A stretch of DNA of 64,000 nt, taken from positions 8,320 through 72,319 of the forward strand of contig JBASRN010000270.1 in assembly GCA_049273855.1 (NCBI GenBank). Direction: 5' to 3'. A model generated the notes under the pieces. That model saw only the letters and a list, made by a program, of their open reading frames with translations. It was not told the origin of the DNA and searched no databases. Made by a program: the position numbers and the translations under genes. Source of the stretch: Blastocatellia bacterium. GTDB lineage: Bacteria > Acidobacteriota > Blastocatellia > UBA7656. Shown piece after piece: positions 22,439 to 51,738 of this stretch; positions within the stretch are counted from its first letter, which is position 1, and each line of letters begins with the position of its first letter.

Positions 22439-23461
22439 CTAAGCGGTGCAAGCCATCCTCCGTTCAACAACATTCGACGCTATATAGTCTACAACCTGCC
22501 TGCCCGTCAGGATAGCATTCTTGATGTGGACTTCACGAGTAACGTGCCCGGCAACGAAGAGCCCGGGAACTGTGGTTTCAAACGTCTCAGGAGAGTATAC
22601 CGGCCGGCCATCATCGGCGATCCTAGCTCCGGCCGTTTCAAGGAGTCGGGTATCCGGGTCGGCACCAATAAGCGCGAATATGTGGTCGCAGTCGACCTCC
22701 CACGTGGTTATATCGCCGCGCGTGCTCCGAAGAAGCGCGCTTCGCGGCCGAATCTCGATGATCTCGGTGGAAGTCAGTACCCGGAGATCGCCGGACCTGG
22801 AGGCCGCCTCGAGAGGACCGAGGACCCAAGGTTTGATCCTCGCGCGCGCGATTAATCGCCCCGAGCTCTCATCCCTGTTTGGTTCTACGGGCGGGCTGAG
22901 CTCGGTTCGGCGAACGCATAGAGTAACGTCCGCGCCGGCTTGCGAAAGGAACAGGGAGGCCTCGGCAGCTGAGTTACCCCCGCCAATCACCAACACTCGC
23001 TTGAAAACTAAAGGATGCGCTTCGAGGAAGCGATATGTGACTCGACAAGGGTCTTCGCCGGGGACACTCAGAAGCCGTCGGCGGCCAAACCCGCCAGTCG
23101 CTGCAAGCACCGCGCGCGCGCGGTAGACTCCGTCACTTGTGCGCACAAGGATTTGACCATCCGTGTTCACCAGCTCATAGACCTCTTCCCGGGTTCGCAG
23201 ATCGATGTTGTGACGCATCACCAGACGTCGATAGTGCCGCAGCAACTCTTCGCGGGTGGGCTTCCGATCCGTTGGGAGGGAACCTGAGTCTATTTCAATC
23301 TCGTCGGAGCTCGAAAACAATACGCCTCCGATCGGATAGCTGTACACTGTGTTGGCGATCGCCTCTCGCTCAAGTATGAGATAGTCAAGTCCGTGATATC
23401 GAGCCCTAACGGCAGCCGCCAACCCGGCGGGACCGCTGCCAACAATGATCAGGTCGTACAT
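22439..23461 (-). CDS. FAD/NAD(P)-binding pyridine nucleotide-disulfide oxidoreductase (thioredoxin-reductase-like)
   Basis: MYDLIIVGSGPAGLAAA dinucleotide-binding motif and a second Rossmann motif VLVIGGGNSAAE. Confidence 0.7.
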   Translation of the reverse strand: MYDLIIVGSGPAGLAAAVRARYHGLDYLILEREAIANTVYSYPIGGVLFSSSDEIEIDSGSLPTDRKPTREELLRHYRRLVMRHNIDLRTREEVYELVNTDGQILVRTSDGVYRARAVLAATGGFGRRRLLSVPGEDPCRVTYRFLEAHPLVFKRVLVIGGGNSAAEASLFLSQAGADVTLCVRRTELSPPVEPNRDESSGRLIARARIKPWVLGPLEAASRSGDLRVLTSTEIIEIRPRSALLRSTRGDITTWEVDCDHIFALIGADPDTRLLETAGARIADDGRPVYSPETFETTVPGLFVAGHVTREVHIKNAILTGRQVVDYIASNVVERRMACTA

Positions 23462-24408: not shown

Positions 24409-25527
24409 TTAAAGAAGGCGCATCGGCATGACTACATACCGGTAGCTATCGGCCTCTTCTCCAGCGGGCCTCATCAGCGCTGGGCTTTGCTCGTCCTTTA
24501 GTTCAAATACGGTTTCTTCGGTCGCTACCACTCCCAAGAAATCGAGTAGATACTGGGCGTTGAAACCGATCGTCAGATCGTCGCCGCTATAATCCACGGC
24601 GATCGCTTCTCTGGACTCGCCCACATCGGCGCTCTGTGAGCTGATGTTCAATCTCCCCTGACCAAGCTCGTATTTGATTCCATGACTCCTCTCGTCGGCC
24701 ATCAGAGCAGCGCGCCTGACTGCTTGCGCAATTTTTTCTGTATTGAGCGTCACTAGTTTATCATTGCCCTTTGGCAGCACGAGATCGTAATTTGGAAACT
24801 GTCCTGCCAGCATCCGCGATGTGAGGTGACGCTGTCCTTGTTTGAAATACAAGTGGTTTGCGTCCGTGGAGAACTCAATATCCTCCTCTGCGGCCGCGGT
24901 CAACTTCAATATCTCGGTCAGCGCCTTTTTTGGAATGATTACTCTCAACTGCTCCTTTTCACTAACAGGTACCTCTTCGATTTCGCAGTCGGCCAGCGCA
25001 AGCCTATGCCCGTCGGTTGCGACCATTCGAAGCCTGCCGTCCGAGAAGGTCAGGAGCGCCCCGCTTAGGGCGTAGCGCGACTCTTCTTGAGTGATCGCGT
25101 ACACGGTCCTGCTGATGAGATTGTGAAGCGCAGTTGACGGAATCGACATTTCAGCTTTACCGGGCTTTGGCGTCGACGGGAAGTGCTCCTTGGCTTGCCC
25201 CGCCAGTCTGAACTCTGAGGATGCACATGTAATCTTAGTCCAGTCGTTAGCTTCCTTGACGAAATCTATATCGGCATCCGGCAAGTACCGCACAAGATCA
25301 AACAGTCGCCTTGCCTGCAGCACTACCGAACCCGCTTCGGAAACGTCCGCTGCGCACTCCGTTTGAAACGACACGTCCAGATCCGTTGCCACAAGTGAGA
25401 CCAGTGATTCATTTACGGTCTCTATTAGGAGGCTGGACAGCACTGGTATTGTTGTCTTCTTCTCGACAATTCCCTGGAGTAGGTTCAACTCCTTTAGGAG
25501 TGATGCTCGGTTCAGGCGGAATCTCAT
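24409..25527 (-). CDS. dnaN: DNA polymerase III beta sliding clamp
   Basis: 372 aa, MRFRLNRASLLKELNLLQGIVEKK... canonical DnaN; immediately downstream of dnaA. Confidence 0.95.
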   Translation of the reverse strand: MRFRLNRASLLKELNLLQGIVEKKTTIPVLSSLLIETVNESLVSLVATDLDVSFQTECAADVSEAGSVVLQARRLFDLVRYLPDADIDFVKEANDWTKITCASSEFRLAGQAKEHFPSTPKPGKAEMSIPSTALHNLISRTVYAITQEESRYALSGALLTFSDGRLRMVATDGHRLALADCEIEEVPVSEKEQLRVIIPKKALTEILKLTAAAEEDIEFSTDANHLYFKQGQRHLTSRMLAGQFPNYDLVLPKGNDKLVTLNTEKIAQAVRRAALMADERSHGIKYELGQGRLNISSQSADVGESREAIAVDYSGDDLTIGFNAQYLLDFLGVVATEETVFELKDEQSPALMRPAGEEADSYRYVVMPMRLL

Positions 25528-25788
25528 TTTGGGTCAACCCTTTCATTTCTGTCGCAATCAGGGTGCTACTATACCAATAACTTTCATAATAAAACTAGTA
25601 GTAGTAGTAGGCTGTGCATAAGTGGAAAACCTGATCAAAAGTACTGATTTCTCTATTAACTACCTCGACTGGACTCGGAAGATAAATGGAGAAAAAGGTA
25701 AGTCCGACGAATAAGTTCAGAACAAATCATATAAAGAGCCTAATTCCACAACGACATCAAAAGGAGATCTGTGGAATACGTCGCTAAC
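25528..25788. promoter_or_regulatory. AT-rich dnaA-dnaN intergenic region, candidate oriC / DUE with DnaA-box-like 9-mers
   Basis: About 35% GC versus about 60% flanking. Contains TGTGGAATA (25770-25778), AGTGGAAAA (25621-25629), the TTCCACAAC complement (25745-25753) and a (TAG)5 microsatellite at about 25588-25602. Confidence 0.45.
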
Positions 25789-27171
25789 TCATTTCATGCT
25801 AGTAATTAGATTGTCTATAACGCTGTGGAAAACTGAGTCTTTATCTCGTAAGTTTGAGATCTTATTAATGCTGTGCAACACGGTGCTGTGATGTTTTCCT
25901 CCAAACTCCCTTCCTATCTCTGGCAAGCTGGCCGATGTAAGCGTCTTACAGAGATACATTGCGACTTGGCGCGGAAATGCTATTACTCTTGTGTTGCTCT
26001 TTGACTTGAGATCGGCAGCCTTCAAACTGTAATGTCCAGCAACAATTCTCTGGATCGATTCGATCGAAGGTGCGTCGGATTCAGACTCGATGATGTTTCT
26101 GAGAATGTCCTTAGCCAAATCGATTCCTATCGGGAGCGCTTTAAGTGATGCATATGCAAGAAGCCTTACCAGCGAGCCTTCCAGTTCTCTGATGTTCGAT
26201 TTAATTTTGCTCGCGATGAATATCGCGACATCATCCGGGAGATCGATTCTCTCCAGTTCGGCCTTTCGCTTTAGGATTGCGACCTTCGTTTCGAGATCAG
26301 GCGGCTGAATATCGGCAATCAGACCCCACTCGAATCTCGAATGCAATCGCTCCTCGAGCGTCGGGATTTCTCGCGGCGGACAGTCGCTTGATATGATTAT
26401 TTGCTTTTGAGAGTCGTAGAGCGCGTTAAAGGTGTGAAAAAACTCCTCCTGAGTACGTTCCTTTCCAGCCAGGAACTGAATATCATCGATAAGCAGAACG
26501 TCGATGTTTCGATATCTGTCCCGAAACTTGATCGTCTGGTCGTATCTGATCGCATTTATCAGCTCGTTCATAAATCTCTCGGATGAGATATATGTGAGGC
26601 GCAGCGACTTATTCCTGGTCTTGATTGCATACCCAATGGCGTGCATCAAATGAGTCTTTCCCAGACCCACCCCGCCATAGATATAGAAAGGGTTATAGGT
26701 TTTGGCGGGCATGTCCACCACCGCCAGGGAAGCGGCGTGTGCGAACTGGTTACAGGAGCCCACAACAAAAGTCTCGAACTTGTATTTTGGGTTGAGCGGC
26801 AAATCTGACTGTTCGGGGACCACCGGCCTGGGCGGATCCAAGGCTTGTGAAGATCGCGGCGAGCTAAGCGGCCTATCCAGACCCGGTACAGAATCTGTGT
26901 TCGACGTTTGCCTCCTATTGTCCCCCAGAAGGAACTCGACCTTATAGCCAACTAAGCCCAGCTCCTCAAGAGACTCTTCGATTACGTCGAAATAGTTGGT
27001 GCGGATCCAATCGCGAAAGATTTCGTTCGGAACCGTTAAATAAAGGGTAGAAGAGTCCTTGGCCGCGCGCAAAATCGGTCTAAACCACGTATCGAAGCTC
27101 TCGTGGTTTAATCGCTTTGAAATCGCTCTTAGGACAGAAGAGAGGAGGTCTATCTGGACACCCGTCGTCAT
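25789..27171 (-). CDS. dnaA: chromosomal replication initiator protein DnaA
   Basis: AAA+ Walker [16 protein letters not shown], DnaA signature and C-terminal DNA-binding domain. Start taken at MTTGVQ (27171); the listed ORF extends to 27210. Confidence 0.95.
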
Positions 27172-27432
27172 TTCACGCCTCCCTATTAGGCACAGAGCAT
27201 TCGCCAACAAAAGGACGAGGTTAGCCGAGCACCGAATGGGCGACCGCGCTCCTCGATAAAGCAGACGACAACAAAGGACCGGCTGTTGAAACTCGCGAAC
27301 AGTATCACAAGTACCGAACTGTTTTCAATCCCGTCGCCTTGCGCTATATGAATAACTGCACCTTAATTAACCCAATAACAGGGTTATACCTGTTTTAATC
27401 AAAATCTGGCCCAGATCACCGCGCAATGTAGA

Positions 27433-27448
27433 CGTTTCACGTGAAACA
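27433..27448. promoter_or_regulatory. parS centromere-like site (perfect palindrome cGTTTCACGTGAAACa)
   Basis: Exact match to the tGTTNCACGTGAAACa ParB-binding consensus, located in the dnaA-parA divergent spacer. Confidence 0.7.
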
Positions 27449-27540
27449 GTGTTTGCCGTTATGGTAAAAGCTCGGGGTCTAGAGTTCAGAGATAGTTGCG
27501 ACTGTTGGTCTGGGTTCGGTTTGTGGTATGTTACCAAGCC

Positions 27541-28323
27541 ATGCCCAGAATAATAGCCATCGCCAACCAGAAGGGTGGCGTTGGCAAAACGACTTCCGCC
27601 ATAAACCTGGCAGCCAGCCTGGCAATTGCCGACCGACGGGTCTTGTTGGTTGACGCGGACCCACAGGGCAACAGCACCAGCGGACTGGGGTTACGGGGCA
27701 CATTTCAGAATAGCCTTTATCACTCGTTGGTCTCGAACCACTCGCTTGATTCAATCGTTTTGGCGAGTGAGTTATCGGGGCTATCGGTCATTCCCTCCGA
27801 GAAGATACTGGTGGCGGCCGAAATCGAACTTGTTGGAGTTGAAGAGAGGGAATTCAAGCTCAAAAAAGCACTGGAGCCGGTCGCCGCGAATTATGATTAT
27901 GTGCTGATCGACTGCCCGCCGAGCCTGGGACTCCTAACTTTGAACGCATTGGCTGCGGCCCACTCGGTGCTGGTTCCGATTCAATGCGAGTACTTTGCTC
28001 TTGAGGGAGTCTCGGAGCTTTGGGACACTCTGGTCAAAGTGCGTAGAAGTTTGAACCCAGCCTTGGCCATCGAGGGTTTTCTGCTTACGATGTTTGACGA
28101 AAGAACGAACCTCTCAAACCAGGTCGTATCCGATTTGAGGGGGTTTCTAGGGTCTCAAGTTTTTTCCACCGTGATACCAAGGAACGTTCGACTTGCCGAG
28201 GCACCCAGCCACGGCAAGCCGATTGTGCTGTACGATGTCCGATCTAAGGGTGCCGAAAGTTACCTTCGATTGGCACGGGAGGTGATCGACAATGTCAAGA
28301 CGGGCATTGGGCAGGGGGCTTGA
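27541..28323 (+). CDS. parA: chromosome partitioning ATPase ParA (Soj)
   Basis: Deviant Walker A IAIANQKGGVGKTTSAINLA; start at ATG 27541. Confidence 0.9.
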   Translation: MPRIIAIANQKGGVGKTTSAINLAASLAIADRRVLLVDADPQGNSTSGLGLRGTFQNSLYHSLVSNHSLDSIVLASELSGLSVIPSEKILVAAEIELVGVEEREFKLKKALEPVAANYDYVLIDCPPSLGLLTLNALAAAHSVLVPIQCEYFALEGVSELWDTLVKVRRSLNPALAIEGFLLTMFDERTNLSNQVVSDLRGFLGSQVFSTVIPRNVRLAEAPSHGKPIVLYDVRSKGAESYLRLAREVIDNVKTGIGQGA

Positions 28324-29155
28324 TGCGCTCTTCCCCCAGGCTAATCCTATCAACAACGATCTGATTGATTTGGATGTTGAGAGCATCGATCCAGGGGTCG
28401 AGCAACCTCGACGCGACTTCAACGAGGAGAAACTGACGGAACTGGCCCGATCGATAGAAGCGAACGGTGTCATTCAGCCAATCGTGGTGCGCCGAGTCGG
28501 CGAGCGATTCCAAATAATCGCCGGCGAGCGCCGCTGGCGAGCTGCGAAGAAGGCCGCTCTGAAGCGGATCCCAAGTCTGATTCGCAATGTTCCGGAGGAG
28601 AATATCCTCGAGTTGTCCCTCATTGAGAACATACAGCGCCAGGAGCTAAACCCGATAGAAGAGGCGAATGCGTATCGCAAGCTTCAGGAACAACTAGGCA
28701 TTACTCAGGAGGCAGTGGCGCAGCGAGTTGGAAAAGACCGTTCGTCGGTGACGAACTCTTTGAGACTTCTAAAGCTGCCCGAGGACGTCCAACGACTAGT
28801 CGAGGACGCCAGGCTTTCAATGGGGCACGCTCGAGCGTTACTCCCTATCGAATCCGCCGACAGGCAAAGAGACTTGGCCGAAGAGATTGTGACCAAACTG
28901 CTTTCGGTGCGACAGACTGAGAAGTTGGTTAAGAATGAACTTGCCACAAATACGCCGCGTCAAACAAAGCCCGAGCCAAAAAACGATGGTGAAACTGCCA
29001 ACATACTCGCGGCCGAGGCAAAGCTGAGCAGGAGGCTTGGAGCGCCAGTAAGGATCAGGTCCCTGAAAGCCGGGGGCGTGGTTGAAATTAGGTTCTCGTC
29101 GAGAGACGAACTTTCACGGATCTTCGATCTACTAATACGGAGGCCGCTGGAGTGA
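28292..29155 (+). CDS. parB: chromosome partitioning protein ParB (Spo0J)
   Basis: MSRRALGRGLDALF N-terminus, ParB box GERRWRAA, HTH; overlaps parA by 32 bp. Confidence 0.9.
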   Translation: MSRRALGRGLDALFPQANPINNDLIDLDVESIDPGVEQPRRDFNEEKLTELARSIEANGVIQPIVVRRVGERFQIIAGERRWRAAKKAALKRIPSLIRNVPEENILELSLIENIQRQELNPIEEANAYRKLQEQLGITQEAVAQRVGKDRSSVTNSLRLLKLPEDVQRLVEDARLSMGHARALLPIESADRQRDLAEEIVTKLLSVRQTEKLVKNELATNTPRQTKPEPKNDGETANILAAEAKLSRRLGAPVRIRSLKAGGVVEIRFSSRDELSRIFDLLIRRPLE

Positions 29156-30189: not shown

Positions 30190-31305
30190 TGAAACCTCAT
30201 TCTTACCCCCTCCTTTTTTTCTTACGTAGCAACGCAATTTTGTTGACAATGCTTAGGCGTCTATGCTAATCTCGTGTTGCTCGGAAAGGGGCAACGAAAT
30301 GAACTGCCAAGATTGCAAAGCGCCGTCAAAGAAATTCGGGAAAGACCGCAAGGGAAATCAGCGTTTCCGCTGCCTGTCTTGCGGAAAGACGTTTAGCGAG
30401 CCGCGCCCGCGTCTCTTGGGGAACATGACGCTAGACGAAAACAAAGCGATTGATTGCCTCAGGCTCTTGGTCGAGGGCAATTCGATTCGGAGCATAGAGA
30501 GGTTTACCGGCGTTCATCGCAATACGATTATGAGCCTTCTTGAGCTAGCGGGCGAACGATGCGAAAAGCTGATGGAAGATCGCATCAAGCACCTATCTGT
30601 TAATGACGTTCAATGCGATGAAGTTTGGGGCTACGTTGGAATGAAAGAGCGAACCAAGGCTCGCAAGGGCGTTGATGACGATAACCTTGGCGATGCTTGG
30701 ACGTTCACCGCGATTGAACGCAATACCAAAATGATTCTTGCCTTTCACCTTGGCCGAAGAACGGAAGCCGATACGATTGCTTTCACTGAGAAGTTGGCCC
30801 ACGCAACTAAGGGCAGTTTTCAAATCACAACAGACGGATTCAGACCGTATCAACACGCAGTTGTTATGAGTCTCGGAGCGCAGCGCGTAGACTTCGCGCA
30901 ACTTGTTAAGCTCTACTCCAGCACACCGGAAGGGCCGCAGACTCGCTACTCCCCGGCTGAGTGTACTGGAGCCCGTAAGGTTCCGATCTACGGTAGTCCT
31001 GATATGGACAAGGTTTCCACTTCGCATATCGAACGCCACAATCTTTCGATCAGAATGAGTACTCGAAGAATGACAAGACTCACTAATGCGTTCTCAAAGT
31101 CTTGGAAGAATCATCAAGCGGCTCTTGCAGTTTATCTTGCCTACTACAATTTTTGTCGCGTACATCAAACGCTAAGAATCACTCCAGCAATGGAGGCAAA
31201 CATTACAGATCACGTCTGGACAATGCGCGAGCTACTAGGCTAAAGCGCGCTTGCCTTTGTTGCCAATATGATATAATAACAGAACCTCTCATTTAGGGGG
31301 TTTAG
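30190..31305 (+). mobile_element. IS1-family insertion sequence (boundaries approximate)
   Basis: Single-ORF IS1-type transposase within the low-GC islet. Flanking AACCTCATT / AACCTCTCATT and ACCCCCT / AGGGGGT motifs are noted, but terminal inverted repeats could not be resolved confidently. Confidence 0.4.
30299..31243 (+). CDS. IS1 family transposase (fused InsAB-like single ORF)
   Basis: N-terminal zinc finger CQDCKAPS...CLSCGK, then DEVWGYVG, TTDGFRPY and C-terminal YNFCRVHQTLRITPAME motifs typical of IS1 transposases. ATG 30299 with a GGAAAGGGG RBS. Confidence 0.8.
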   Translation: MNCQDCKAPSKKFGKDRKGNQRFRCLSCGKTFSEPRPRLLGNMTLDENKAIDCLRLLVEGNSIRSIERFTGVHRNTIMSLLELAGERCEKLMEDRIKHLSVNDVQCDEVWGYVGMKERTKARKGVDDDNLGDAWTFTAIERNTKMILAFHLGRRTEADTIAFTEKLAHATKGSFQITTDGFRPYQHAVVMSLGAQRVDFAQLVKLYSSTPEGPQTRYSPAECTGARKVPIYGSPDMDKVSTSHIERHNLSIRMSTRRMTRLTNAFSKSWKNHQAALAVYLAYYNFCRVHQTLRITPAMEANITDHVWTMRELLG

Positions 31306-31308
31306 GCC

Positions 31309-31545
31309 ATGTTTAAAGACGAACTAGAATACTTTGTTGCTCATCAAGAAGAACTAGTCGAAAAGTATCAAGGTAAAGTATTGGTTATAAAAGGAAACGA
31401 GCTATTAGGCGTCTATGATGACGCTCTCGAAGCGTATCTTGAAGCGCAAAAACGGTATGAGCTTGGGACGTTTATGATCCAAGCTTGTGAGCCAGGACCA
31501 CAAGCGTATAGCGTTACCATTGGTTCGATACAATCGTTTACCTAA
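31309..31545 (+). CDS. small protein, DUF5678-like (putative partner of downstream aspartic protease)
   Basis: 78 aa; ELVEKYQGKVLVIKGNELLGVYDDALEAYLEAQKRY pattern. Stop TAA is directly followed by the ATG of the next gene. Confidence 0.4.
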   Translation: MFKDELEYFVAHQEELVEKYQGKVLVIKGNELLGVYDDALEAYLEAQKRYELGTFMIQACEPGPQAYSVTIGSIQSFT

Positions 31546-32151
31546 ATGACTAATCCGCAGATTCGTCATATTCTTGCTTTCACTACCACGTTCCCCGGTC
31601 TTACAGATCGCATTATCACCGAAGTAAAGCTAACCCAAGCGTTTGATCCAAACACGCCACCAAATCCCATACCGGCGCTCATAGCAACAGCTGCATTATG
31701 GGATACAGGGGCAACTAGGAGCGTCATCACCCCGAGTATTGCGGCAGATCTGAAACTTGTTCCAACGGGAACCGTGATGATGAATTCTGCGCATGGTTCC
31801 AAACAATGCAACACGTATCTAGTTAACCTTTACTTGCCCAACGGCGCTGCGATTTATGGTGTTCCCGTTAGCGAATGCACGGACACTGCTCACTTTGGAG
31901 CGATCATCGGAATGGACATTATTGCGATGGGCGACTTCTCGATTACGAATGTAAATCGCAAGACGATAGTTTCCTTCCGCATCCCGTCTATTGCCACCGT
32001 GGACTACGTCGCCGACGTCAAGAAACTGAAGGCAGAACAAGAAAGGCTGGAGAACGCAAAGCCGATTCGCAATAAGGGTCCGCGTGTCGGGCGCAATGAC
32101 CCATGTCCCTGCGGATCGGGGAAGAAGTACAAGAAATGCTGCGGCGGCTAG
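31546..32151 (+). CDS. retropepsin-like (clan AA) aspartic protease with C-terminal SEC-C zinc-binding motif
   Basis: [10 protein letters not shown] catalytic D-T-G-A, downstream IIGMDII flap/dimer motif, and a C-terminal [18 protein letters not shown] that exactly fits the SEC-C motif. Confidence 0.65.
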
Positions 32152-37120: not shown

Positions 37121-37525
37121 CTAGCCGTCGGCTGCGCCGTCGATCAACTCACGCAGTATCGAGCGATGACACGCAGATTCGTTCTCGCAGTAACATCCTA
37201 TGCTGACCGGAGTCCGGCTGGCTAACTCTGCCAGAAGCTTGATCGCCTGGCGCGCGTCGGTTTTCTTCATCTCGGCTGTGTAGCGCTCTTTGAACTTCGA
37301 CCACCTGACTTGTTCGCTTGGCCAGTCGCGACCCTTGACCCACTTGAGCAACGCGGGGCTCGGAGCTAACAACGGAAACCAGACGTCGAAGTAGTCTAAC
37401 CGAGCGTAGTCTTCTTTCTTCACTCCGCGCGGCAGAAAGCGGACTGTGCCCACTCTCAAGCCCTCGCCTGATTTGCGTGGGGTACCGACTCGGAAGGTTC
37501 CCAGATTTGTTCTCGGGTTTGGCAT
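37121..37525 (-). CDS. DUF488 family protein
   Basis: FDVWFPLLAPSPALLKW...W..F.ERY..EM...CYC.E...CHRSIL pattern of DUF488 (PF04343). Confidence 0.55.
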   Translation of the reverse strand: MPNPRTNLGTFRVGTPRKSGEGLRVGTVRFLPRGVKKEDYARLDYFDVWFPLLAPSPALLKWVKGRDWPSEQVRWSKFKERYTAEMKKTDARQAIKLLAELASRTPVSIGCYCENESACHRSILRELIDGAADG

Positions 37526-37600: not shown

Positions 37601-37920
37601 TCATATCTCACGGATGAGACGAATCCTGGCAAGTTTATCCTCACCCAGTCCGGCCAACTCGCTTTCGCTGAGCCAGCCTTCGTTAATCAGTCGCGCGAAG
37701 ACGAAGATCAAGACTGAATAGCGATAGTCATACTTCTCATCGACGGCTTTCGATTCTTTGTCAGAAAGTCGTGCAATGCCCACATGTCACTGGGCTCGGC
37801 AATACCCTTCGTGCGGCGGCGAACCTCGTCTACAAGGGCCGCGCACTCGCGATTATATGCCTCGTCGAACGCTCGTCGCGCGATTGCCTTTTCGCCCCTG
37901 GACCATTGCTCGTTGTGCAT
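37601..37920 (-). pseudogene. fluorescence-recovery-protein (FRP)-like gene, disrupted by a frameshift in an A-run
   Basis: Two overlapping ORFs in different frames together reproduce the FRP family pattern (W..E.A..AF.EAY.RE...L...V......I....DMWALHDFLTKNRK / AVDEKYDYRYSVLIFVFARLINEGWL..ELAGLGEDK). The frames join at cgaaagccg (around 37745-37755). Confidence 0.55.
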
Positions 37921-37975
37921 TTCAAACCTCGGGTTTCGCCAGGTACTTCACCGCAGAGCCGCTGAGGCGCAGAGA

Positions 37976-39763
37976 TTACGCCGAGAGGGAATACTTACCC
38001 GCCTTTATGACAGCATCGGCGATGTGGCGACGGGCTGCGATGGCTTTGATCGGAACGTGCTCAGCAAGCTGTTCGATAAGCTCCGTGCTCTTCTCATCCT
38101 CCGTCTCGGTTACCACTGCTCGCGCGGCGCACTCGATACGCAGAGCCGCGTCACGCGCGAACACGCGTGTGATCTCGGTTTGAACCGAACATTTCTCCAG
38201 GCCTCGTTCCTCGAACAGCCTGCGCGTTCGAAGCAGCACGCTCTCCATCGCGTACACATCCATAACCATATCGGCGATCAAACCAAGCGCTTCCTGTTGG
38301 TCGCGGGCGCTCTCACCGTAAGCGCGCGCGAAGCTTTCGATCGCAAGCAACGTCATGCTCTTCGCGCCTGTGAGCATCACGATTTCTCGCTTGAACGCCT
38401 TGTTCGCCACGTTCATTTCAAGCGTGTCCGAAGCGGGCGGTTTGACCGGAGTAACTCGGGATGCCGTTTCAAACAACCCGAGCTCGCCGGCCTTCGCTCG
38501 TCTCAGCAACTGCGTCGCGATCACGATGCGATTGATTTCATTTGTGCCTTCGTAGATTCGAGCTATCCGCGCGTCCCGGTAAGCTTGCTCGGCCGGATAG
38601 TCTTTCGAATAGCCATAACCGCCGAACACCTGCACCTCTTCGTCCACCACGTACGCGAGCGCCTCGCTCTCCCAAACCTTGATGATCGAGCATTCCATCG
38701 CGTACTGCTCCAGCACTGCGAGCACTTGCTTCGGGTCGTCCTTATCGACCTGTTCGAGCGCGTCGTCGATCATCCCAAGCGTGCGATACAGGATCGATTC
38801 GCCAACGTAAGTCCGAATCGTCATTTCCGCGAGCTTGTGTTTGATCAACCCGAAGTTGGCAATCGCCTGGCCGAACTGATGCCGTTCCTTCGCGTACTGA
38901 ACGGATTGTTGAAGCGAGAGTTTCATTGTCCCAACCGAGCGCGCGCCGAGTTTCAAGCGGCCGATGTTCAGCACGTTGAAGGCGATCTTGTGGCCGCGAC
39001 CGATCTCGCCCAGCAAGTTCTCGACCGGCACGCGGCAGTCTTCAAGCATCAGCGCGGTAGTAGATGAGCCATCGATCCCGAGCTTCTTCTCTTCATGCCC
39101 GCTCACAAGCCCCGGTCCGCGCTCGACCAGAAACGCTGTGAATTTCTCGCCGTCCACCTTTGCGAAGACGGTGAACAGATCGGCAAAGCCGCCGTTTGTG
39201 ATCCACATCTTCTGGCCGTTGAGGATGTAATCTTTGCCGTCTTCGGAAAGCACGGCTTTGGTCTTCGCCGCGAGCGCGTCCGAACCCGACTGCGGCTCGG
39301 TCAACGCATACGCGCCGATCCACTCGCCGGTCGCAAGTCTTGGCAGGTACTTCTGTTTCTGTTCCTCGGTTCCAAAGAAGACCAACGGCAGCGTGCCGAT
39401 GTTGACGTGCGAGCTGTGCGTCCCGGCAAACGAAGCTTGAAGCGCAAATTGCTCTCCAACTACGGCGGAGCTGACTTTGTGCAAACCGAGTCCGCCATAC
39501 CGCTCGGGAATGTCGATCATCAGCAGGCCAAGCTCGCCCGCTTTGCGCATCAACTCGCGATGCACCGCGTAGTCTTTGGCGTAGATTTCGGCTTCGCGCG
39601 GAATGACCTCTTTTCGAAGGAACTCCTCGGCAGTGCGCGCAAACATCCGTTGTTCGTCGGTGATGTCTTCGGGTGTGAACACTTCTGAAGGCTCACGGTC
39701 TTCTATAAGGAAGCTGCCGCCCATTGGCGATTGGACCGCTGAGGGTTTGCTGGTCATAAGCAC
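37976..39763 (-). CDS. acyl-CoA dehydrogenase (long form with C-terminal extension)
   Basis: ACAD N-terminal, middle beta-barrel and C-terminal helical domains (YALTEPQSGSDA..., GGYGYSKDYPAEQAYRDARI). 595 aa. Confidence 0.9.
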   Translation of the reverse strand: MLMTSKPSAVQSPMGGSFLIEDREPSEVFTPEDITDEQRMFARTAEEFLRKEVIPREAEIYAKDYAVHRELMRKAGELGLLMIDIPERYGGLGLHKVSSAVVGEQFALQASFAGTHSSHVNIGTLPLVFFGTEEQKQKYLPRLATGEWIGAYALTEPQSGSDALAAKTKAVLSEDGKDYILNGQKMWITNGGFADLFTVFAKVDGEKFTAFLVERGPGLVSGHEEKKLGIDGSSTTALMLEDCRVPVENLLGEIGRGHKIAFNVLNIGRLKLGARSVGTMKLSLQQSVQYAKERHQFGQAIANFGLIKHKLAEMTIRTYVGESILYRTLGMIDDALEQVDKDDPKQVLAVLEQYAMECSIIKVWESEALAYVVDEEVQVFGGYGYSKDYPAEQAYRDARIARIYEGTNEINRIVIATQLLRRAKAGELGLFETASRVTPVKPPASDTLEMNVANKAFKREIVMLTGAKSMTLLAIESFARAYGESARDQQEALGLIADMVMDVYAMESVLLRTRRLFEERGLEKCSVQTEITRVFARDAALRIECAARAVVTETEDEKSTELIEQLAEHVPIKAIAARRHIADAVIKAGKYSLSA

Positions 39764-44051: not shown

Positions 44052-46106
44052 GTGCAGGCGGCCGGCTCCTGCCTAAATAGGGTGACACCGGTGACAACAA
44101 CAGACCCAAACGAAACTCCGTCAATTGCCCCTCAATCTGAGGCCGTCGCCGCTTCCTCCAGACCGCTATGGGCCAGCTCGGCACTCATCGTTGTCGTCGG
44201 GGTTCTTGTCTACGTCAACAGTTTCGGCGGGCAAATAGTGTTCGACGACGTGGTGATAACGGACGACTCCTCGATCCGCCAGCTTTGGCCGCCGTGGGGA
44301 GCGATGTCCTCGCCGAAGCAGGTCTCGCGTCCGCTGGTCGGGCTGTCGCTTGCGATCAACTACGCGATGAGCGGCACCGGCCTCTGGAGCTACCATCTGT
44401 TTAACCTCGTTATCCACATACTGGCCGCGCTGACGTTATTCGGGGTGGTTCGTAGAACACTGCTCACCGACGGGTTGAAAGACCGATTCGGAAAGGCATC
44501 GACCGGTCTCGCTCTCGCGGTTGCGTTGATCTGGATGGTACATCCAGTGCACACCGAGTCGGTGACCTACCTGATACAGCGTTCGGAGGCGATGTGCGGG
44601 TTGTTCTATCTGCTTACGCTCTACTGCGTAATTCGGGGACGCTCGGGGCAGCACGGTGCGCTCTGGTACAGCGCCGCTGTCTTAAGCTGCGCGGCGGGCA
44701 TGGCGAGCAAGCCGGTGATGGTCACGGCCCCGATCATGGTGCTGATCTACGATCTGGTTTTTTTCCGGGACTCGTTGAAGGAAACACTCCGACGGCGGGC
44801 AATTCTCTATGGGGGTCTCGCTTTCACCTGGATAGTCATAGCGGTCACGGTTCACGCCGCGAGTCCTTATCAGGAGTCTGCGGGCTTCCATCTCGAGCGG
44901 ATGACGCCGCTCAGTTACTTGGTTTCGCAGTTCGGGGTGATTGTTCACTACTTGCGACTGTCGGTGTGGCCTTACGATCTGTGTATTGATTACGGCTGGC
45001 CGCTTGCTGACGACGCCACCAGGATCGTCCCGTTCGCGGTGGTCGTCGGCGCTCTCGGGCTGCTGACGCTGATGGCGCTCAAGCGCCGACCCGAGGTTGG
45101 GTTTCTCGGCATTTGGTTCTTCTTGATCCTCGCGCCAACATCGAGCATCATGCCGATCCTCGACGTGGCGGTTGAGCATCGTATTTATCTCTCGCTTGCT
45201 GCCGTTGTGGCGCTTGTAGTGTTGGGGTGCTACCGATTTGCGCCTTCGCCGCGGCTGAGGAATTCTGCTACCACGCGCTGGCTGGGGGTCGGCGCGGTCG
45301 CGATAGTCGTGGCGTGGTTCGGCTCGCTTACGGTGGAGCGCAATGGTTACTACCAGAGCAGGACAGCGATGTGGCTGGACGTTGTCAGAAAGCGGCCCGA
45401 CAATTGGAGAGGTCACAACAACCTTGGTTTTTGTCTCACGGAGAAGGGCGACCGTGAAGGCGCGCGGGAGCGGTTTGCCGAAGCGCTCAGGCTGAGACCA
45501 GGCGCCATCGACGTTCTGGATAACATGGGGATGTGGCTGTTGAATTCGGACACGCCCGGTGAGGCACTGCCCTATTTTCAACAGGTGCTTAACGTGGATC
45601 CCGGCAGGAAGAGATTGCATTTTAACATCGGCCGAGCTCTGGAGAATCAGGCCCGATTGGATGAAGCCGTCCACGCGTACAACGAGGAGTTAAGGCTTAA
45701 CCCTGGGTCTGCGGAAGCTCGCATGCAACTTGGTTGGGTGCTCGAGCGGCAGAAGAAGTTCAGTGAGGCGGCCGCGGCTTATCAGGATACGCTGGCTGTC
45801 GCTCCAGAGTGGCCTCAACCTCTTTGCCGGTTTGCTCTATTGTTAGTCGACGCCGAGGCGAAGGAACTTCGGAATACGGGCGAGGCGATTCGAATGGCGG
45901 ACAAGGCGGTGAGCGTCTCCAGCCGTGAACCGGTCACGCTGGACGTCCTGGCTTCGGTCTACTCCTCGACCGGGCAATTCGAGCAAGCAATCGCCGTCGC
46001 GACGGAAGCAATCGACATGGCCAAATCCGGAGGCGCGGATCAACTGGCCGCGGCGATCGAGGGCCGCCTGGAGATGTATAAGCAAGGCCGCTCGGCAAGG
46101 CCTTAG
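44052..46106 (+). CDS. TMTC/PMT_2-like multi-pass membrane protein with C-terminal TPR repeats (putative protein O-mannosyltransferase-like)
   Basis: An N-terminal region of about 400 aa with more than 8 TM helices (DUF1736-like) followed by TPR repeats. Confidence 0.65.
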   Translation: MQAAGSCLNRVTPVTTTDPNETPSIAPQSEAVAASSRPLWASSALIVVVGVLVYVNSFGGQIVFDDVVITDDSSIRQLWPPWGAMSSPKQVSRPLVGLSLAINYAMSGTGLWSYHLFNLVIHILAALTLFGVVRRTLLTDGLKDRFGKASTGLALAVALIWMVHPVHTESVTYLIQRSEAMCGLFYLLTLYCVIRGRSGQHGALWYSAAVLSCAAGMASKPVMVTAPIMVLIYDLVFFRDSLKETLRRRAILYGGLAFTWIVIAVTVHAASPYQESAGFHLERMTPLSYLVSQFGVIVHYLRLSVWPYDLCIDYGWPLADDATRIVPFAVVVGALGLLTLMALKRRPEVGFLGIWFFLILAPTSSIMPILDVAVEHRIYLSLAAVVALVVLGCYRFAPSPRLRNSATTRWLGVGAVAIVVAWFGSLTVERNGYYQSRTAMWLDVVRKRPDNWRGHNNLGFCLTEKGDREGARERFAEALRLRPGAIDVLDNMGMWLLNSDTPGEALPYFQQVLNVDPGRKRLHFNIGRALENQARLDEAVHAYNEELRLNPGSAEARMQLGWVLERQKKFSEAAAAYQDTLAVAPEWPQPLCRFALLLVDAEAKELRNTGEAIRMADKAVSVSSREPVTLDVLASVYSSTGQFEQAIAVATEAIDMAKSGGADQLAAAIEGRLEMYKQGRSARP

Positions 46107-46368: not shown

Positions 46369-48609
46369 ATGCATCGCAGAGTTCTTTCTGTCTTTCTAAG
46401 TTTTTGCTTGTTTGCTTCGTTCGCGGCTGCAGGCCCTCACCAAAAACCAGCGGCACGCAAGGCGAAACCAGCCCCGCAGAAGCCGCCGGCTGCGAAGCAG
46501 GAAGTAAAGACTGGGCCGACCGCCGCAAAGCCGGCCGAACCCTCGAAAAAGCCGCCCCGGGCCGACAACCAGTGGGCGTTGGTGGTCGGGATCAGCAAGT
46601 ATCCGGGTCAAATTCAGAGTTTGAATTTTCCGCGCGACGATGCGCGCGCGGTCAAGGACATGCTCGTTACCGACGCAGGGTTCGCTGAAGATCACATCCG
46701 ATTGCTCACCGACGATGGGGCCGGGGAGGCTAAGGCGACGAGGCAGAACATTCTTGCTGCAGTGGACGGCTACCTGGCGCCGCGTGTGCAGCCGGGGCAC
46801 GAGGTAATCGTTTTCTTCGCCGGCCACGGGATCGCTCGTGGCCTGGGCCAGCAAGCGAAGAGCTACTTCCTGCCGGTCGACGTCGATGCGCAGTCAAAGG
46901 AATCGCTCGAGCGAACGGCTGTCGATCTGGAGGATCTTGCGCGCCGGCTCAGCGTATTGAAGGCGTCTCAGTTTTCGATATTCATAGACGCCTGCCGCGA
47001 AGACCCCTTTCCGGGCCGCGGCATCAAGGGCAACACGATGACCGATGTTATGAGCCGCGGCTTGCGGATAACGCGCGGCGGTTCCACGGCTGCCGAAGCG
47101 GCGCCGGCGACTTCGATCATCTTTTACGCCTGCAAAGTTGGCGAGCGCGCTTACGAAGATCCTGAACTCAAGCACGGCGTCTTTACTTATTTTATTCTTT
47201 CCGGAATTCGAGACCTGGCGAACAGGCCGGACGGCCGGGTGGACGCCGGCTTTCTAGCAAATTTTTTGCGCGACAATATGCAAAAGTGGAGCTCGGAGTA
47301 TCAGAAGCGCGCGCGCTATGCCGTAGAGCAGACGCCGATGATGGTCGCGACTGAGGTGCACGGCCCGCTGGTCATCGTTCGATTGGCTCAGATTGCGGCG
47401 AACCCTCCGGCGCCGCCGGCCACCGGCTCGATCGCTCTGTTCACCTCGCCGAAGGACGCTACGTTGAGCTTGAATGGCAAAACGTTGGGCACCGCGCCGA
47501 TCGAAAAGGAAATCCAGGCTGGTGAGTACACCGTTCGAGCCGAGTCGCAGGGCTTTCAACCCACCGAAGCAAAGATCACGGTTGTGCCCGGCTACCAGCA
47601 GGAATTTACGATCACGTTGAAACCAACCGCAACCAACGCCAGTTACGAGAAGGGTGTGCAGTTCGAAGCTCAAAAGCTGTGGCCGCAAGCGGTCGCTTCC
47701 TACGAACAGGCACTGCGCGAAGACCCGAGCCTGACCGCCGCACTGGAGCGTCTGGCAAACGCATACACCGCAGCCGGACGTTTTCGCGATGCTGCCGATC
47801 TGCTAACCACGGCTTCTGAGAAGGCTCCCGACAATGCAGTGTTGCTTGCGCGGCGCTCGCGGGCTCTTGGCCAATGGTCGCTGCAAGACGAGACCCTGGA
47901 CGCCTCGATAAACCCGCGACCGGATAAGGCGACCAGGTACAAGGACGCCGCCAAGGAAGCGGTTAGAGCGGCGGAGCTGGCCACCAAGAAAGCACCCGAC
48001 CTTGCGGTTGTTAATCTCGCGCTCGGGTATGCGTACACGCTTCAGGAACGCGACCGGCCGAAGGCGATCCCGGCGTTTGTCCGCGCCTCGACGATCGCGC
48101 CCGAAGACCCGGAAAGCTACTATGGAGTTGGCTACGGCTATCGGCTGATGAAGCAGTACCCGCAGGCGATTCCTCAATTAAGGAAGGCCATCGAGCTGCG
48201 GTCTGATTACTACGAAGCGCATCGCGAGCTGGCTTATTGCTATCACGCGACAGGCGACACCGATCAAGCGATCAAAGAGTACAACACCGCGAGCGGTTAT
48301 CAAGGAGAGACCAGCAACTCTGGCGACATGGCGGGCAATCATCTCGCGCTCTCCGCGCTCTACGCCGAGAAGGGTCAGCAGGTGGGTGGCGCAGAAGGAG
48401 AAGAGATCTCGAAAGCAGGGAAGGGTCACGAGACTGAAGCCCGGGGCTACGATCCAACGTTGAAAGCGGCCCTCAAGATACTGCAAGGCAGCGGCGTGGC
48501 GTATCGCATGCAAAGTTACTTGCCGTCAGAGTTACGCAACGTTATCAACACCCCGGGGGTGCCTGTGCCCGGCGGCGTTAAGATACCGTTTCCGAGGAAG
48601 CGTCCGTAG
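46369..48609 (+). CDS. caspase-like (peptidase C14) domain protein with PEGA domain and TPR repeats
   Basis: Signal peptide. C14 core WALVVGISKY...VIVFFAGHGI (catalytic His) ... SIFIDACRE (catalytic Cys). PEGA-like TLSLNGKTLGTAPIEKE...YTVRAESQGFQP, then TPR repeats. Confidence 0.7.
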   Translation: MHRRVLSVFLSFCLFASFAAAGPHQKPAARKAKPAPQKPPAAKQEVKTGPTAAKPAEPSKKPPRADNQWALVVGISKYPGQIQSLNFPRDDARAVKDMLVTDAGFAEDHIRLLTDDGAGEAKATRQNILAAVDGYLAPRVQPGHEVIVFFAGHGIARGLGQQAKSYFLPVDVDAQSKESLERTAVDLEDLARRLSVLKASQFSIFIDACREDPFPGRGIKGNTMTDVMSRGLRITRGGSTAAEAAPATSIIFYACKVGERAYEDPELKHGVFTYFILSGIRDLANRPDGRVDAGFLANFLRDNMQKWSSEYQKRARYAVEQTPMMVATEVHGPLVIVRLAQIAANPPAPPATGSIALFTSPKDATLSLNGKTLGTAPIEKEIQAGEYTVRAESQGFQPTEAKITVVPGYQQEFTITLKPTATNASYEKGVQFEAQKLWPQAVASYEQALREDPSLTAALERLANAYTAAGRFRDAADLLTTASEKAPDNAVLLARRSRALGQWSLQDETLDASINPRPDKATRYKDAAKEAVRAAELATKKAPDLAVVNLALGYAYTLQERDRPKAIPAFVRASTIAPEDPESYYGVGYGYRLMKQYPQAIPQLRKAIELRSDYYEAHRELAYCYHATGDTDQAIKEYNTASGYQGETSNSGDMAGNHLALSALYAEKGQQVGGAEGEEISKAGKGHETEARGYDPTLKAALKILQGSGVAYRMQSYLPSELRNVINTPGVPVPGGVKIPFPRKRP

Positions 48610-48660: not shown

Positions 48661-49635
48661 TCAGAACAAAGAAGGCTGACTGACAGCCAGGCCCGATCGA
48701 CTCTTCATCCAACTCAGCAGGTCGTCGATGTCTTTCAGGTCAGACTCGGCAACCGGCGAGGCCCCTTTCCTGATCAACGCGTGGTTGCCGGCGGGCACTT
48801 CGTCGCCCATTCTCACAAACACCGGACACGAGCCGGACTTCAACGCCTCCGTAGCCCCCGCCCAGGTCCCGCCTTTCTCGACGTCGCTCGAAACCACTAC
48901 CGCGTAGTCCGCGAAACCGTAGATCAACTTGTTGCGACCCATCGCAGCGCCGATCGAAAACCCTGCCGAAGGTGAATAAGGAGTCACCAACGCCAGCTTC
49001 CTGTCGGAAAGCGCGTCGCGCAGGTTGGGCGCGCGAACCGCCCGCTCCAGGCTGTCGGCGAGCACCCCCAGCGACGTGCCGCCCGCGGAAAGCGACGCTC
49101 CCATCGCAATCGCGTCCGTGCCGCGAGCGCCGCCCGAGATAACCGTCACCGAAAGCCCGGCGCACTTCTGGCCGATTTCCTCGGCGAAACTCTTTCCGCG
49201 TTCGTCAACGCTTCGGGACCCCACAACCGCAACCCCGCCCTTGTTCAACAGTGCGAGTTTGCCGGCCGCGAACAAGACGGGCGGCGCCACATGCTTGAGC
49301 GACTCACGAAGCCGCGACGGATAGTCTTCATCGACGCAGGTCACCGGCGTTATGCCGAGACTCGTGAGTCGCTCGACTTCTATTGCAACCGACTCGCTGT
49401 CTTCGAGTAGATGGTGGATTCGCTCGGCGTCAACCGGCGGAATCTCGAGCTCGGCGGCTATCTCCGACGCCCCAAGTCCGAGCAACGCGCCTGCGGCACC
49501 TAGCGCGGACGAGCTGATCTTTCGCGACAGCTCATTCCATTCTCTGGCCGACAGAGGCCGCACGCCGTCAGCCGGATCTGAATCGCCAGCAGTTGAACAG
49601 AGCAGCAGCACCGCCTGACTATCATCGTTTAACAT
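48661..49635 (-). CDS. dprA: DNA processing protein DprA (Smf/DprA-SLOG Rossmann family)
   Basis: VAVVGSRSVDERG ... VISGGARGTDAIAMGASL ... LALVTPYSP ... FSIGAAMGRNKLI motifs of DprA. Start abuts the stop of the upstream RecQ fusion gene. Confidence 0.85.
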   Translation of the reverse strand: MLNDDSQAVLLLCSTAGDSDPADGVRPLSAREWNELSRKISSSALGAAGALLGLGASEIAAELEIPPVDAERIHHLLEDSESVAIEVERLTSLGITPVTCVDEDYPSRLRESLKHVAPPVLFAAGKLALLNKGGVAVVGSRSVDERGKSFAEEIGQKCAGLSVTVISGGARGTDAIAMGASLSAGGTSLGVLADSLERAVRAPNLRDALSDRKLALVTPYSPSAGFSIGAAMGRNKLIYGFADYAVVVSSDVEKGGTWAGATEALKSGSCPVFVRMGDEVPAGNHALIRKGASPVAESDLKDIDDLLSWMKSRSGLAVSQPSLF

Positions 49636-51738
49636 TCAACTGCTCCCAACAGTCGCGCTCGCCAGGGCGAACGGATAGACAGGGCCGCTTCCGTTCTTCC
49701 GCAGCAGCCACGACACCACGGTCAAGGTCCACCGCGAGTCCACCACGTCGTCGATCAACAGAACGGGGTCGTTCGGCACTTCGCCGACAACCTCGAAAGC
49801 ATCAATCACGTTCCGCAGTTGCTGCGCGCTGTTCTGCATACTCTTCTGCGCGGGTCGTTCAATTGTCTTTCGTAAGACGGGTATAAACGGCAAACCCAAC
49901 CTCTGGGCGAGACGCGCCGCGAAAGTATACACCAGCGTTGGATCACGCAACGAAGGCACGGCGGTGACCCACGCCGGGGGAGGGTCGGGTTGCCACCGCC
50001 GTTGAATCATCTCAGCCGAAGCGTCGGCGAGCGTGTCGCCGAACTGTCGGGTTTGATACTTGCAGCGGGCGACTTCTCGCCCCCAGCCGGCGTCGCCGTA
50101 GACGCTCAGCACGCGGCCGGCGCTCGCCCTCAGGTCTTCCGGTATGCGCCCCGACACAAGCGGCGATGCCCCGCTTTGCCATTGTTTTCTCGGCTCGATC
50201 ACCAGCGCCGCTCCACGAAGGTACGCGACTGCGCGTTGTTTGAGCCGCTCGTCCAGATCGCGTTTTGGAAGCTTGCCCGTGCAGTTCATACATCGTCCGC
50301 ACCTTGCCGCCGCGGGGTCGTCGAGCGCCTGCGCCAGAAACTCCATCAAGCAGCGGTCGAGCGCGACGTAGCGGCGCATCTCTTCCAGCTCGCGCAGTCT
50401 CAACGCGGTCACCGCTTCGGTGCGAGCCGTGTCGGGCTGCCAGTGGTTCGGTGTACGAGAGTAACGCCTTTTGTCTCGCGAAACCGCGCCGTCGAGTTCC
50501 AGCAGCTTCAGCGCTTTTTCGATCGTCCCAAACGAGTAGTTGAGCGCGTTCATGATCTCGAAGATGGTCAAGCCAACGGTCGGCTCGACCAGATCGATGA
50601 TCTCCTGCATAGCGCGTTCGGGTGGAAACGCGGACCGGATGAAGTACTCCTGTATCTCGTCGTCTTCGCGGCCGCTGAGCAGAATGCCAAACGCGCTGTC
50701 GACTGCGCGACCCGCGCGTCCGACCTGCTGATAGTACGCGATGACCGAGCCGGGCCGCTGGAAGTGTATGACGAACCCCAGGTCGGGTTTGTCGTAGCCC
50801 ATCCCGAGCGCGGTCGTCGCTACCAGACACTTGATCTGGTTTCCGAGCAAGGCTTGCTCTGCGCCGGTCCGCTCTTCCTCCGGAAGATCGGCGTAGTACG
50901 GGCGAGCTTCGATGCCGTTCTCACTCAGCCAGCTTGATACCCGTCGCACGTCGTTGACGGTCAGGCAGTAGACGATTCCGCTTCCTTCAAGGTTTGGCAG
51001 ATGTTGCGCGAGCCATGCGAGGCGTTCGCTCTGATCGGCGAGCTGGATGTTGAACAACCGCAGCGAAGGTCGCGTGAGCGCTCCACGCTGCACCTTGAGG
51101 TCCGAGCCGATCTGAGCGATTACATCATCGATGACCCGGGTGTTTGCGGTGGCTGTCGTGCACAGCACCGGCACTTTCGAAGGCAGCGCTTGAAGCACGC
51201 GCACGATTCGCCTGTAGTCGGGCCGGAAATCGTGACCCCAATCAGAGATGCAGTGCGCTTCGTCGACTACTAACAGGCCTACCCGCTCTCGAATTTTCGC
51301 AAGCACGTTGTTTAAGAAGCGCTCATTGTTGAGTCGCTCGGGCGCGATCAACAGGATGTCGCACTCGTCTTGCTGCAACTGCAATTCGACGCCGTCCCAC
51401 TCTTCGGTATTGTCGCTGTTGATCGTCGCCGGCCGGATGCCAAGGCCCCGAGCCATGTCCAGCTGATTGCGCATCAGCGCGCGTAGCGGGCTGACCAGAA
51501 GTGTGGGTCCCGCACCCGCGTCGCGCAGCAGCCTGGTTGACAAGAAATAGACGAGACTCTTTCCCCAACCTGTGCGCTGCACAACCAGGAGCCGTCCGCG
51601 ATTGACCGCGATCTCGCTAATGGCATCCCATTGACGTTCGCGGAACCGTGCATTCCTGCCATACATTTGTTTGAGTAGCGCCTCGGCTTTTGCCTGGTGA
51701 GGATCCGACATCGAAACCTCCGACGCGCCCGCAGGCAA
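49636..51738 (-). CDS. RecQ-family DNA helicase fused to C-terminal ComFC/GntX-like phosphoribosyltransferase (PRTase-fold) domain
   Basis: Helicase motifs (QRTGWGKSLVY, VVDEAHCISDWGHDFRP, RQC zinc motif RCGRCMNCTG). The final ~200 aa (...R..R...Q..L...RNVIDAF.V......PVLLIDDVVDSRWTLTVV...) match the ComFC-type PRTase signature. Confidence 0.85.
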   Translation of the reverse strand: MPAGASEVSMSDPHQAKAEALLKQMYGRNARFRERQWDAISEIAVNRGRLLVVQRTGWGKSLVYFLSTRLLRDAGAGPTLLVSPLRALMRNQLDMARGLGIRPATINSDNTEEWDGVELQLQQDECDILLIAPERLNNERFLNNVLAKIRERVGLLVVDEAHCISDWGHDFRPDYRRIVRVLQALPSKVPVLCTTATANTRVIDDVIAQIGSDLKVQRGALTRPSLRLFNIQLADQSERLAWLAQHLPNLEGSGIVYCLTVNDVRRVSSWLSENGIEARPYYADLPEEERTGAEQALLGNQIKCLVATTALGMGYDKPDLGFVIHFQRPGSVIAYYQQVGRAGRAVDSAFGILLSGREDDEIQEYFIRSAFPPERAMQEIIDLVEPTVGLTIFEIMNALNYSFGTIEKALKLLELDGAVSRDKRRYSRTPNHWQPDTARTEAVTALRLRELEEMRRYVALDRCLMEFLAQALDDPAAARCGRCMNCTGKLPKRDLDERLKQRAVAYLRGAALVIEPRKQWQSGASPLVSGRIPEDLRASAGRVLSVYGDAGWGREVARCKYQTRQFGDTLADASAEMIQRRWQPDPPPAWVTAVPSLRDPTLVYTFAARLAQRLGLPFIPVLRKTIERPAQKSMQNSAQQLRNVIDAFEVVGEVPNDPVLLIDDVVDSRWTLTVVSWLLRKNGSGPVYPFALASATVGSS

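Follow-up and report, generated by a model that had tools for sequence, protein, structure and literature searches.

An FRP-like gene carrying a single one-base frameshift in DNA of probable blastocatellial origin: young pseudogene or sequence error

The FRP (fluorescence recovery protein) family is known from the photoprotection of cyanobacteria, for which the structures of the Synechocystis protein Slr1964 (Protein Data Bank [PDB] entry: 4JDX) and of the Fremyella diplosiphon protein (PDB entry: 5TZ0) are available, and the positions of Synechocystis FRP that contact OCP are F76, K102 and L106 (Steube et al. 2023, PMC10172135). The FRP-like (FRPL) homologues have been reported to occur "mainly in proteobacteria and acidobacteria", with a sporadic distribution, and in genomes that contain neither OCP nor HCP nor CTDH (Steube et al. 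2023, PMC10172135). In the same study the structure of the FRPL of Pseudomonas borbori (PDB entry: 8AG8) was solved, a role in OCP recovery was excluded for FRPLs in general, and a stress-related function that is unrelated to OCP was suggested. The partner of FRPL in non-cyanobacteria cannot be OCP. The presence of FRPL in acidobacteria that do not have OCP is therefore already published (PMC10172135), and this context is not new.

The FRPL gene described here lies on the minus strand of a 64-kb stretch of DNA (referred to as the window), and the coordinates of its parts and of its two flanking genes are collected in Table 1. Two overlapping minus-strand ORFs in different frames are indeed present, as listed in a first-pass annotation of this DNA: the N-terminal ORF (37708..37920, 70 aa) begins with ATG, and the C-terminal ORF (37601..37783, 60 aa), with a GTG at 37783, is in the -1 frame relative to the N-terminal ORF. 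The two frames meet at the string CGAAAGCCG (37752-37744, minus strand), where the G at 37747 is shared, being the last base of AAG (K58) as well as the first base of GCC (A59). When one base is restored at this junction, a continuous ORF of 106 aa is obtained (MHNEQWSRGEK...FLTKNRK/AVDEKYDYRYS...LIREI), in agreement with the protein of about 110 aa that had been anticipated. The restored junction reads CGAAAGGCCG or CGAAAAGCCG when the extra base is a G or an A, and the protein is the same either way (...NRK-AVDEK...). A second, intact FRPL copy was not found by tblastn in the 64-kb window.

Table 1. Coordinates of the disrupted FRPL gene, its parts and its flanking genes in the window
Feature	Coordinates	Strand	Detail or basis
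Whole disrupted FRP-like (FRPL) gene	37601..37920	-	ATG 37920-37918 to TGA 37603-37601, the latter in the second frame
Codons 1-58 (M1..K58), starting frame	37747..37920	-	tblastn segment 1-58, 100%; Pfam profile 1-52
Codons 59-106 (A59..I106), -1 frame	37604..37746	-	second tblastn segment, to 37604; Pfam profile 53-96
Frameshift site CGAAAG/CCG, one base short compared with relatives	37744..37752	-	1-nt alignment gap; junction codons of relatives
Premature TGA, starting frame	37708..37710	-	12 aberrant codons (PSMRSMTIAIQS) beyond K58
Shine-Dalgarno-like GAGG	37927..37930	-	6 nt 5' of the ATG; read from the sequence
Long acyl-CoA dehydrogenase (ACAD), upstream neighbour	37976..39763	-	Pfam Acyl-CoA_dh_N/M/1/C; stop 55 nt before the FRPL ATG
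DUF488-N3a protein, downstream neighbour	37121..37525	-	Pfam PF22751, 130 bits; 75 nt past the FRPL stop

The profile search that the first-pass annotation had proposed as a check of family identity gives a score of 104.3 bits (E=5e-30) for the repaired protein against the Pfam FRP family (PF18032; cut-off 26.6 bits), covering positions 1-96 of the 99 positions of the profile. The N-terminal ORF alone scores 48.1 bits (profile positions 1-52) and the C-terminal ORF alone scores 46.0 bits (profile positions 53-96), and since these halves abut in the profile without gap and without overlap, the match is not due to chance. Against a profile made of 44 homologues, from which the repaired protein itself was excluded, the score is 178.7 bits, which ranks second among 121. 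In the alignment of 45 sequences, the repaired protein retains all 16 invariant and all 18 near-invariant columns, and the family-invariant residues W6, E10, W47, K63-Y-D-Y-R-Y-S69, L78 and G91 (numbering of the repaired protein) are present; the KYDYRYS motif (K63-S69) falls in the part that is encoded by the second frame, in the C-terminal head domain.

The same identity is found when considering the solved structures. A sequence search against these structures finds the FRP of Fremyella (5TZ0, 5.8e-28), the FRPL of P. borbori (8AG8, 3.5e-24) and the FRP of Synechocystis (4JDX, 2.6e-20), and all three alignments run end to end and are gap-free over the junction. The AlphaFold2 model of the repaired protein, calculated with the 45-sequence alignment, has a mean pLDDT of 94.7 and helices at residues 8-38, 43-63, 71-80, 86-89 and 94-105, arranged as in the FRP fold, an all-helical fold that combines a long antiparallel two-helix stalk with a small head domain at the C-terminus. 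Codons 1-58 encode helix 1 together with the greater part of helix 2, and the remainder of helix 2 and the complete head domain are encoded by codons 59-106. In the comparison of this model with the PDB using Foldseek, the TM-scores are 0.91 (5TZ0), 0.93 (8AG8) and 0.83 (4JDX), and the significant matches are FRP and FRPL chains only. The intact protein is thus predicted by the model to be a small all-helical protein with the FRP fold, and by analogy with P. borbori FRPL and cyanobacterial FRP it presumably is a homodimer. The FRP-family identity that had been proposed on first reading is therefore well founded, both in the Pfam score and sequence matches to 5TZ0 and 8AG8 and in the TM-scores (0.91-0.93) of the model. 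The only family characteristic of FRP/FRPL proteins that the locus fails as sequenced is a continuous ORF (about 100-115 aa), which here is split at 37747. In sequence, fold and motifs alike, the locus is therefore a coding sequence wholly typical of the FRP family, apart from the one lesion.

The similarity to P. borbori FRPL (8AG8; Steube et al. 2023, PMC10172135) concerns the Pfam family (PF18032), the 106-aa length class, the fold (TM-score of 0.93) and the sequence (40% identity). As for the FRPL genes of the P. borbori type, the host is non-cyanobacterial, there is no OCP, HCP or CTDH in view, and the gene stands alone, with no neighbour that is conserved throughout the family. It differs from P. 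borbori FRPL by the 1-nt deletion and by its position in a Blastocatellia sub-clade (best matches 72-79%), in which the gene is often found beside DUF488-N3a. The homology with cyanobacterial FRP (Synechocystis Slr1964, 4JDX; F. diplosiphon, 5TZ0) also extends over the full length, with 48% identity to 5TZ0 and TM-scores of 0.83-0.91, and includes the KYDYRYS-type core and the phenylalanine corresponding to F76 of Synechocystis (F73). When the OCP-contact triad F76/K102/L106 is aligned, it corresponds to F73, R99 and I103, such that the phenylalanine is kept and the other two positions are conservative substitutions. In contrast with cyanobacterial FRP, the host is not a cyanobacterium, an OCP partner is not present in the window and the gene is disrupted. 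Functionally, the gene does not qualify as a cyanobacterial FRP, as neither the host nor, within the window, the partner corresponds to that of the cyanobacterial system.

In agreement with what the first-pass annotation had said about the partner, no OCP, HCP (Carot_N) or CTDH (NTF2-like) gene was identified by Pfam among the approximately 55 ORFs of the 64-kb window. A search of a large protein database yields 316 homologues, the best of which is 79% identical; the named homologues are from Acidobacteriota, Tectomicrobia and Nitrospirota metagenome-assembled genomes (MAGs). Among contigs selected as one genome per species, the closest loci are from Acidobacteriota/Blastocatellia MAGs (66-73% aa identity), and remoter FRPL loci are from Terriglobia, Desulfobacterota, Methanothrix, Methylococcales, Planctomycetota and others. 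Exact-protein look-ups for the DUF488 protein, DnaN and the 70-aa ORF gave no match. These nearest loci, together with the gene order that they have in common with the window, point to a Blastocatellia-like acidobacterium, and not a cyanobacterium, as the host. The non-cyanobacterial context that had been highlighted at first is thus upheld as regards the host, for which both the Blastocatellia/Acidobacteriota relatives and the synteny argue, but it is not an oddity, being published (PMC10172135) and shared with hundreds of homologues.

The genes on both sides of FRPL are also found in the related loci. The ACAD of the window is about 80% identical at the amino acid level, as one continuous segment, to that of three related loci (L001, L002 and L004), the DUF488-N3a protein is 85% identical to that of L002, and the gene order is common to the window and its relatives. 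The neighbourhoods were surveyed by clustering the ORFs within 3 kb of FRPL in 128 loci, including the window. In this survey DUF488-N3a adjoins FRPL in eight loci of relatives (nine with the window), all of these belonging to the Blastocatellia clade. DUF488 is absent downstream of FRPL in L128, which is the contig of the closest relative, and in L129, which suggests that the pairing of FRPL with DUF488 reflects common descent and not a functional module. The tendency of Blastocatellia FRPL to lie upstream of DUF488-N3a is a weak lead, from one lineage, for the function of FRPL. Other neighbours in the 128 loci are a HEAT-repeat protein, in nine Methanothrix-type loci, and ACAD, in seven. A family-wide operon partner of FRPL was considered and rejected, as across the 128 loci the synteny is only lineage-specific. 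In the Methanothrix-type loci, which are archaeal (L008, L017, L018, L020, L027, L047, L113, L114 and L116) a conserved protein of about 315 aa is encoded upstream of FRPL; by eye it resembles HEAT/PBS-lyase-type repeats, and its lineage-specific occurrence is comparable to the DUF488 pairing of the Blastocatellia. The DUF488 orthologue that adjoins FRPL in L001 (Acidobacteriota MAG, JBBPIH010000029.1) is also interrupted, its two frames lying at 10776-10925 and 10897-11157, a further isolated frameshift in this neighbourhood.

The integrity of the reading frame was compared across the family. All 316 homologues are single polypeptides, having lengths of 99-153 aa (median 109) among the 120 that were retrieved. 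At the DNA level 127 loci were fetched (47 genomic and 80 metagenomic), and in 124 of these the match is uninterrupted over 90 residues or more. A break at the site of the window copy was found in none of the 127 loci, and the 20 closest relatives are in frame at the junction. Damage of other kinds is seen in L042 (9900-10204; Sedimentisphaerales chromosome OY970194.1), where FRPL is frameshifted near residue 26, in L046 (3392-3589; Acidobacteriaceae MAG), where it has two in-frame stops, and in L047 (4319-4453; Methanotrichaceae MAG), where the N-terminal half is lost and residues ~56-100 remain. Damaged FRPL copies thus make up about 2-3% of the loci sampled, as would fit an accessory gene that is dispensable. 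In these comparisons the frameshift is private to the window sequence. The kind of gene is already described, and the only particular feature of the window copy is its private 1-nt deletion.

The alignment of the DNA with four related loci shows a single gap of 1 nt in the window copy, which is located at the junction, and no further indel within the gene; the single-base nature and the position (CGAAAG/CCG) of the frameshift are thereby confirmed. Codon 57 is CGN (Arg) in each of the 20 closest relatives, and since this codon is conserved throughout, the starting frame up to CGA AAG is ancestral. G is the last base of codon 58 in 19 of these 20 relatives and the first base of codon 59 in 15, such that their junction codons read ...CGR ARG GCN... 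(for example CGA AAG GCG ATC in L056). The most parsimonious ancestor would be CGA AAG GCC GTC, from which one G of the GG pair would have been lost, and this event is at least as likely as the loss of an A. An ancestral CGA AAA GCC that lost an A is a less likely possibility when these codons are considered. In either case the run at the lesion is short (2-4 nt), and the A-run is only AAA. Consequently, of the earlier proposal that an A is missing from an A-run, the loss of one base stands, but a homopolymer of A is doubtful, given a run of no more than AAA and relatives whose codons point to a G of GG.

The first-pass annotation had left three options for this frameshift, of which two are left, namely a young pseudogene and a sequence error. 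The young pseudogene is preferred, at about even chances; it would have been generated by a very recent deletion that was not programmed and that inactivated a dispensable, sporadically distributed accessory gene. In this course of events an ordinary FRPL orthologue of the Blastocatellia type would have lost one base between codons 58 and 59, most likely a G of AAG/GCC. In the present sequence, the frame that opens with the ATG at 37920 contains 58 native codons and 12 aberrant codons before the TGA at 37710-37708 is reached, and the C-terminus of the truncated product reads KPSMRSMTIAIQS. This product would be without the end of helix 2 and without the entire head domain and should be non-functional, and the second ORF has no ribosome-binding site of its own: inspection of the sequence before the GTG at 37783 reveals no Shine-Dalgarno-like signal. 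The loss of and damage to FRPL in other genomes, which is consistent with the sporadic distribution, fits a real lesion.

It is also quite possible, at somewhat under even chances, that the real gene is intact and that base-calling or the polishing of the consensus omitted one base, either a G of GG or an A of AAAA. No decay is seen other than the missing base: the conserved residues are kept, the profile score is among the highest of the family, and the Shine-Dalgarno-like sequence and the ATG are undamaged, all of which is equally compatible with an error of base-calling or assembly. Young bacterial pseudogenes, however, typically carry a single lesion, and the otherwise intact gene does not, therefore, discriminate between an artefact and a real deletion. 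The location of the gap at a short run (AAA/G) is in favour of an artefact, but the run is very short (three A, or a GG pair if the ancestor was AAG/GCC) and is not a classic site of homopolymer errors. Comparable isolated frameshifts exist in related MAG assemblies, as in the DUF488 orthologue of L001 and in the FRPL of L042, and these too favour an artefact. One indel per 64 kb is within the range of consensus errors of long-read data, and a lone indel in the window is, from this general knowledge, compatible with such an error. Against an artefact, no further frameshifted gene was found among the approximately 55 window ORFs that were checked. A codon-usage frame plot was too noisy for finding other frameshifts, and the end-to-end coverage of the ORFs by Pfam families was used for this purpose. 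The other window ORFs that match a Pfam family (approximately 55) have end-to-end matches, none of these being frameshifted, and the ACAD and DUF488 genes of the window align to those of the relatives as single segments, from which it follows that the assembly is not indel-ridden. An independent copy of the junction from the same strain or species was not found, the best matches being 79% identical in the protein database and 72-75% identical among the loci of the genome and metagenome collections.

Programmed frameshifting, the third option of the earlier annotation, is not supported. According to this explanation the tRNA-Lys on AAG slips to AAA (A_AAG), GCC is the next codon, and a fraction of the ribosomes makes the 106-aa protein by programmed or tolerated -1 frameshifting, which is very improbable. 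A -1 slip at the junction codon would yield the same protein as the repair (...NRK-AVDEK...), and the C-terminal frame is open and perfectly conserved. The motif A_AAG is shift-prone in the A-site in E. coli, and its presence at the junction is a point in favour of recoding by this established precedent. As in the genes with programmed -1 frameshifts (dnaX with A_AAA_AAG, and the IS transposases), an AAG lysine codon preceded by A is found at the junction, and a -1 slip restores the family protein. Unlike in these genes, a tandem slippery heptamer and a stimulatory Shine-Dalgarno sequence or hairpin are lacking, and orthologues do not share the shift. At the shift point the sequence is U_CGA_AAG, in which a heptamer of the type X_XXY_YYZ is absent, as only the A-site half (A_AAG) fits, and by the established rules of frameshifting CGA in the P-site would not be able to re-pair with UCG. 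No Shine-Dalgarno-like or GGAGG-like stimulator is present in the 20 nt upstream of the shift site, and the downstream RNA, in segments of 55 and 85 nt, folds no better than shuffled sequences (z-scores of -0.27 and 0.48). The A-run is also too short for transcriptional slippage. Programmed frameshifts are conserved among orthologues, but this shift is absent from the 20 nearest relatives, from the 127 loci and from the 316 proteins. A lineage-private variant, in which the base is truly missing and a few ribosomes slip by -1 on A_AAG, giving a low and possibly stress-tuned level of FRPL, is extremely improbable.

That the gene is a functional split gene, whose helical-hairpin and head-domain fragments are made separately and act separately or reassemble, is hardly credible, as the finding that either ORF by itself exceeds the Pfam cut-off for FRP (48 and 46 bits) and the GTG at 37783 in the second ORF are outweighed by the lack of a Shine-Dalgarno-like sequence 5' of this GTG (compared with the GAGG located 6 nt before the true start), by the position of the break within helix 2 (43-63) and not at the boundary between stalk and head, by the 12 nonsense residues on the first product and by the lack of a split FRPL among the 316 proteins and 127 loci.

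With the young pseudogene and the sequence error as the two explanations to be considered, the locus is best labelled as a frameshifted FRP-family pseudogene, or flagged for a check of the reads, and not annotated as two hypothetical proteins. It is no evidence of carotenoid-based photoprotection or of recoding. The window copy adds one more FRPL orthologue, a broken one.

Several other features of the window can be described. A cluster of the replication-origin type is located at 24409-29155, with dnaN (24409-25527, minus strand) and dnaA (25789-27210, minus strand), and, divergent from dnaA, parA (27496-28323, plus strand) and parB (28292-29155, plus strand), all four being full-length by Pfam; the presence of these genes shows that the window is chromosomal. 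A cluster of DnaA boxes of the E. coli type was not found around dnaA, and scans of the window with Rfam and for tRNAs gave no match. The GC content is 0.50 across 24-32 kb, compared with 0.57-0.60 elsewhere in the window. Beside parB, in this low-GC stretch (30263-32151), there is an IS1-family DDE transposase-like ORF (30263-31243, plus strand), whose match to the IS1 domain is confined to the C-terminal part of that domain, followed by an ORF (31546-32151, plus strand) that combines a retropepsin-like aspartyl protease domain with a SEC-C motif at its C-terminus.

Closer to the beginning of the window, a RelE-like toxin ORF (8608-8955, minus strand) overlaps a small upstream ORF (8945-9217, minus strand), which together look like a toxin-antitoxin pair. 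In the adjacent ORF at 9347-10036 (minus strand) the MUG113/T5orf172 domain ends at position 51 of the 73 positions of the profile; this ORF is probably truncated at its C-terminus and is the only other gene in the window that looks damaged. A DEAD/Helicase_C protein (49636-51738, minus strand), having a weak C-terminal match to phosphoribosyltransferases, abuts a DprA/DNA_processg_A gene (48661-49635, minus strand), and this region (48661-51738) is similar to a ComFA/ComFC-DprA competence set in which helicase and PRTase are fused. Large TPR proteins are also encoded in the window, namely a PEGA-TPR protein (20587-22473, minus strand) and a PMT_2-like protein with TPR (44052-46106, plus strand), as well as a caspase (Peptidase_C14)-PEGA-TPR protein (46369-48609, plus strand).
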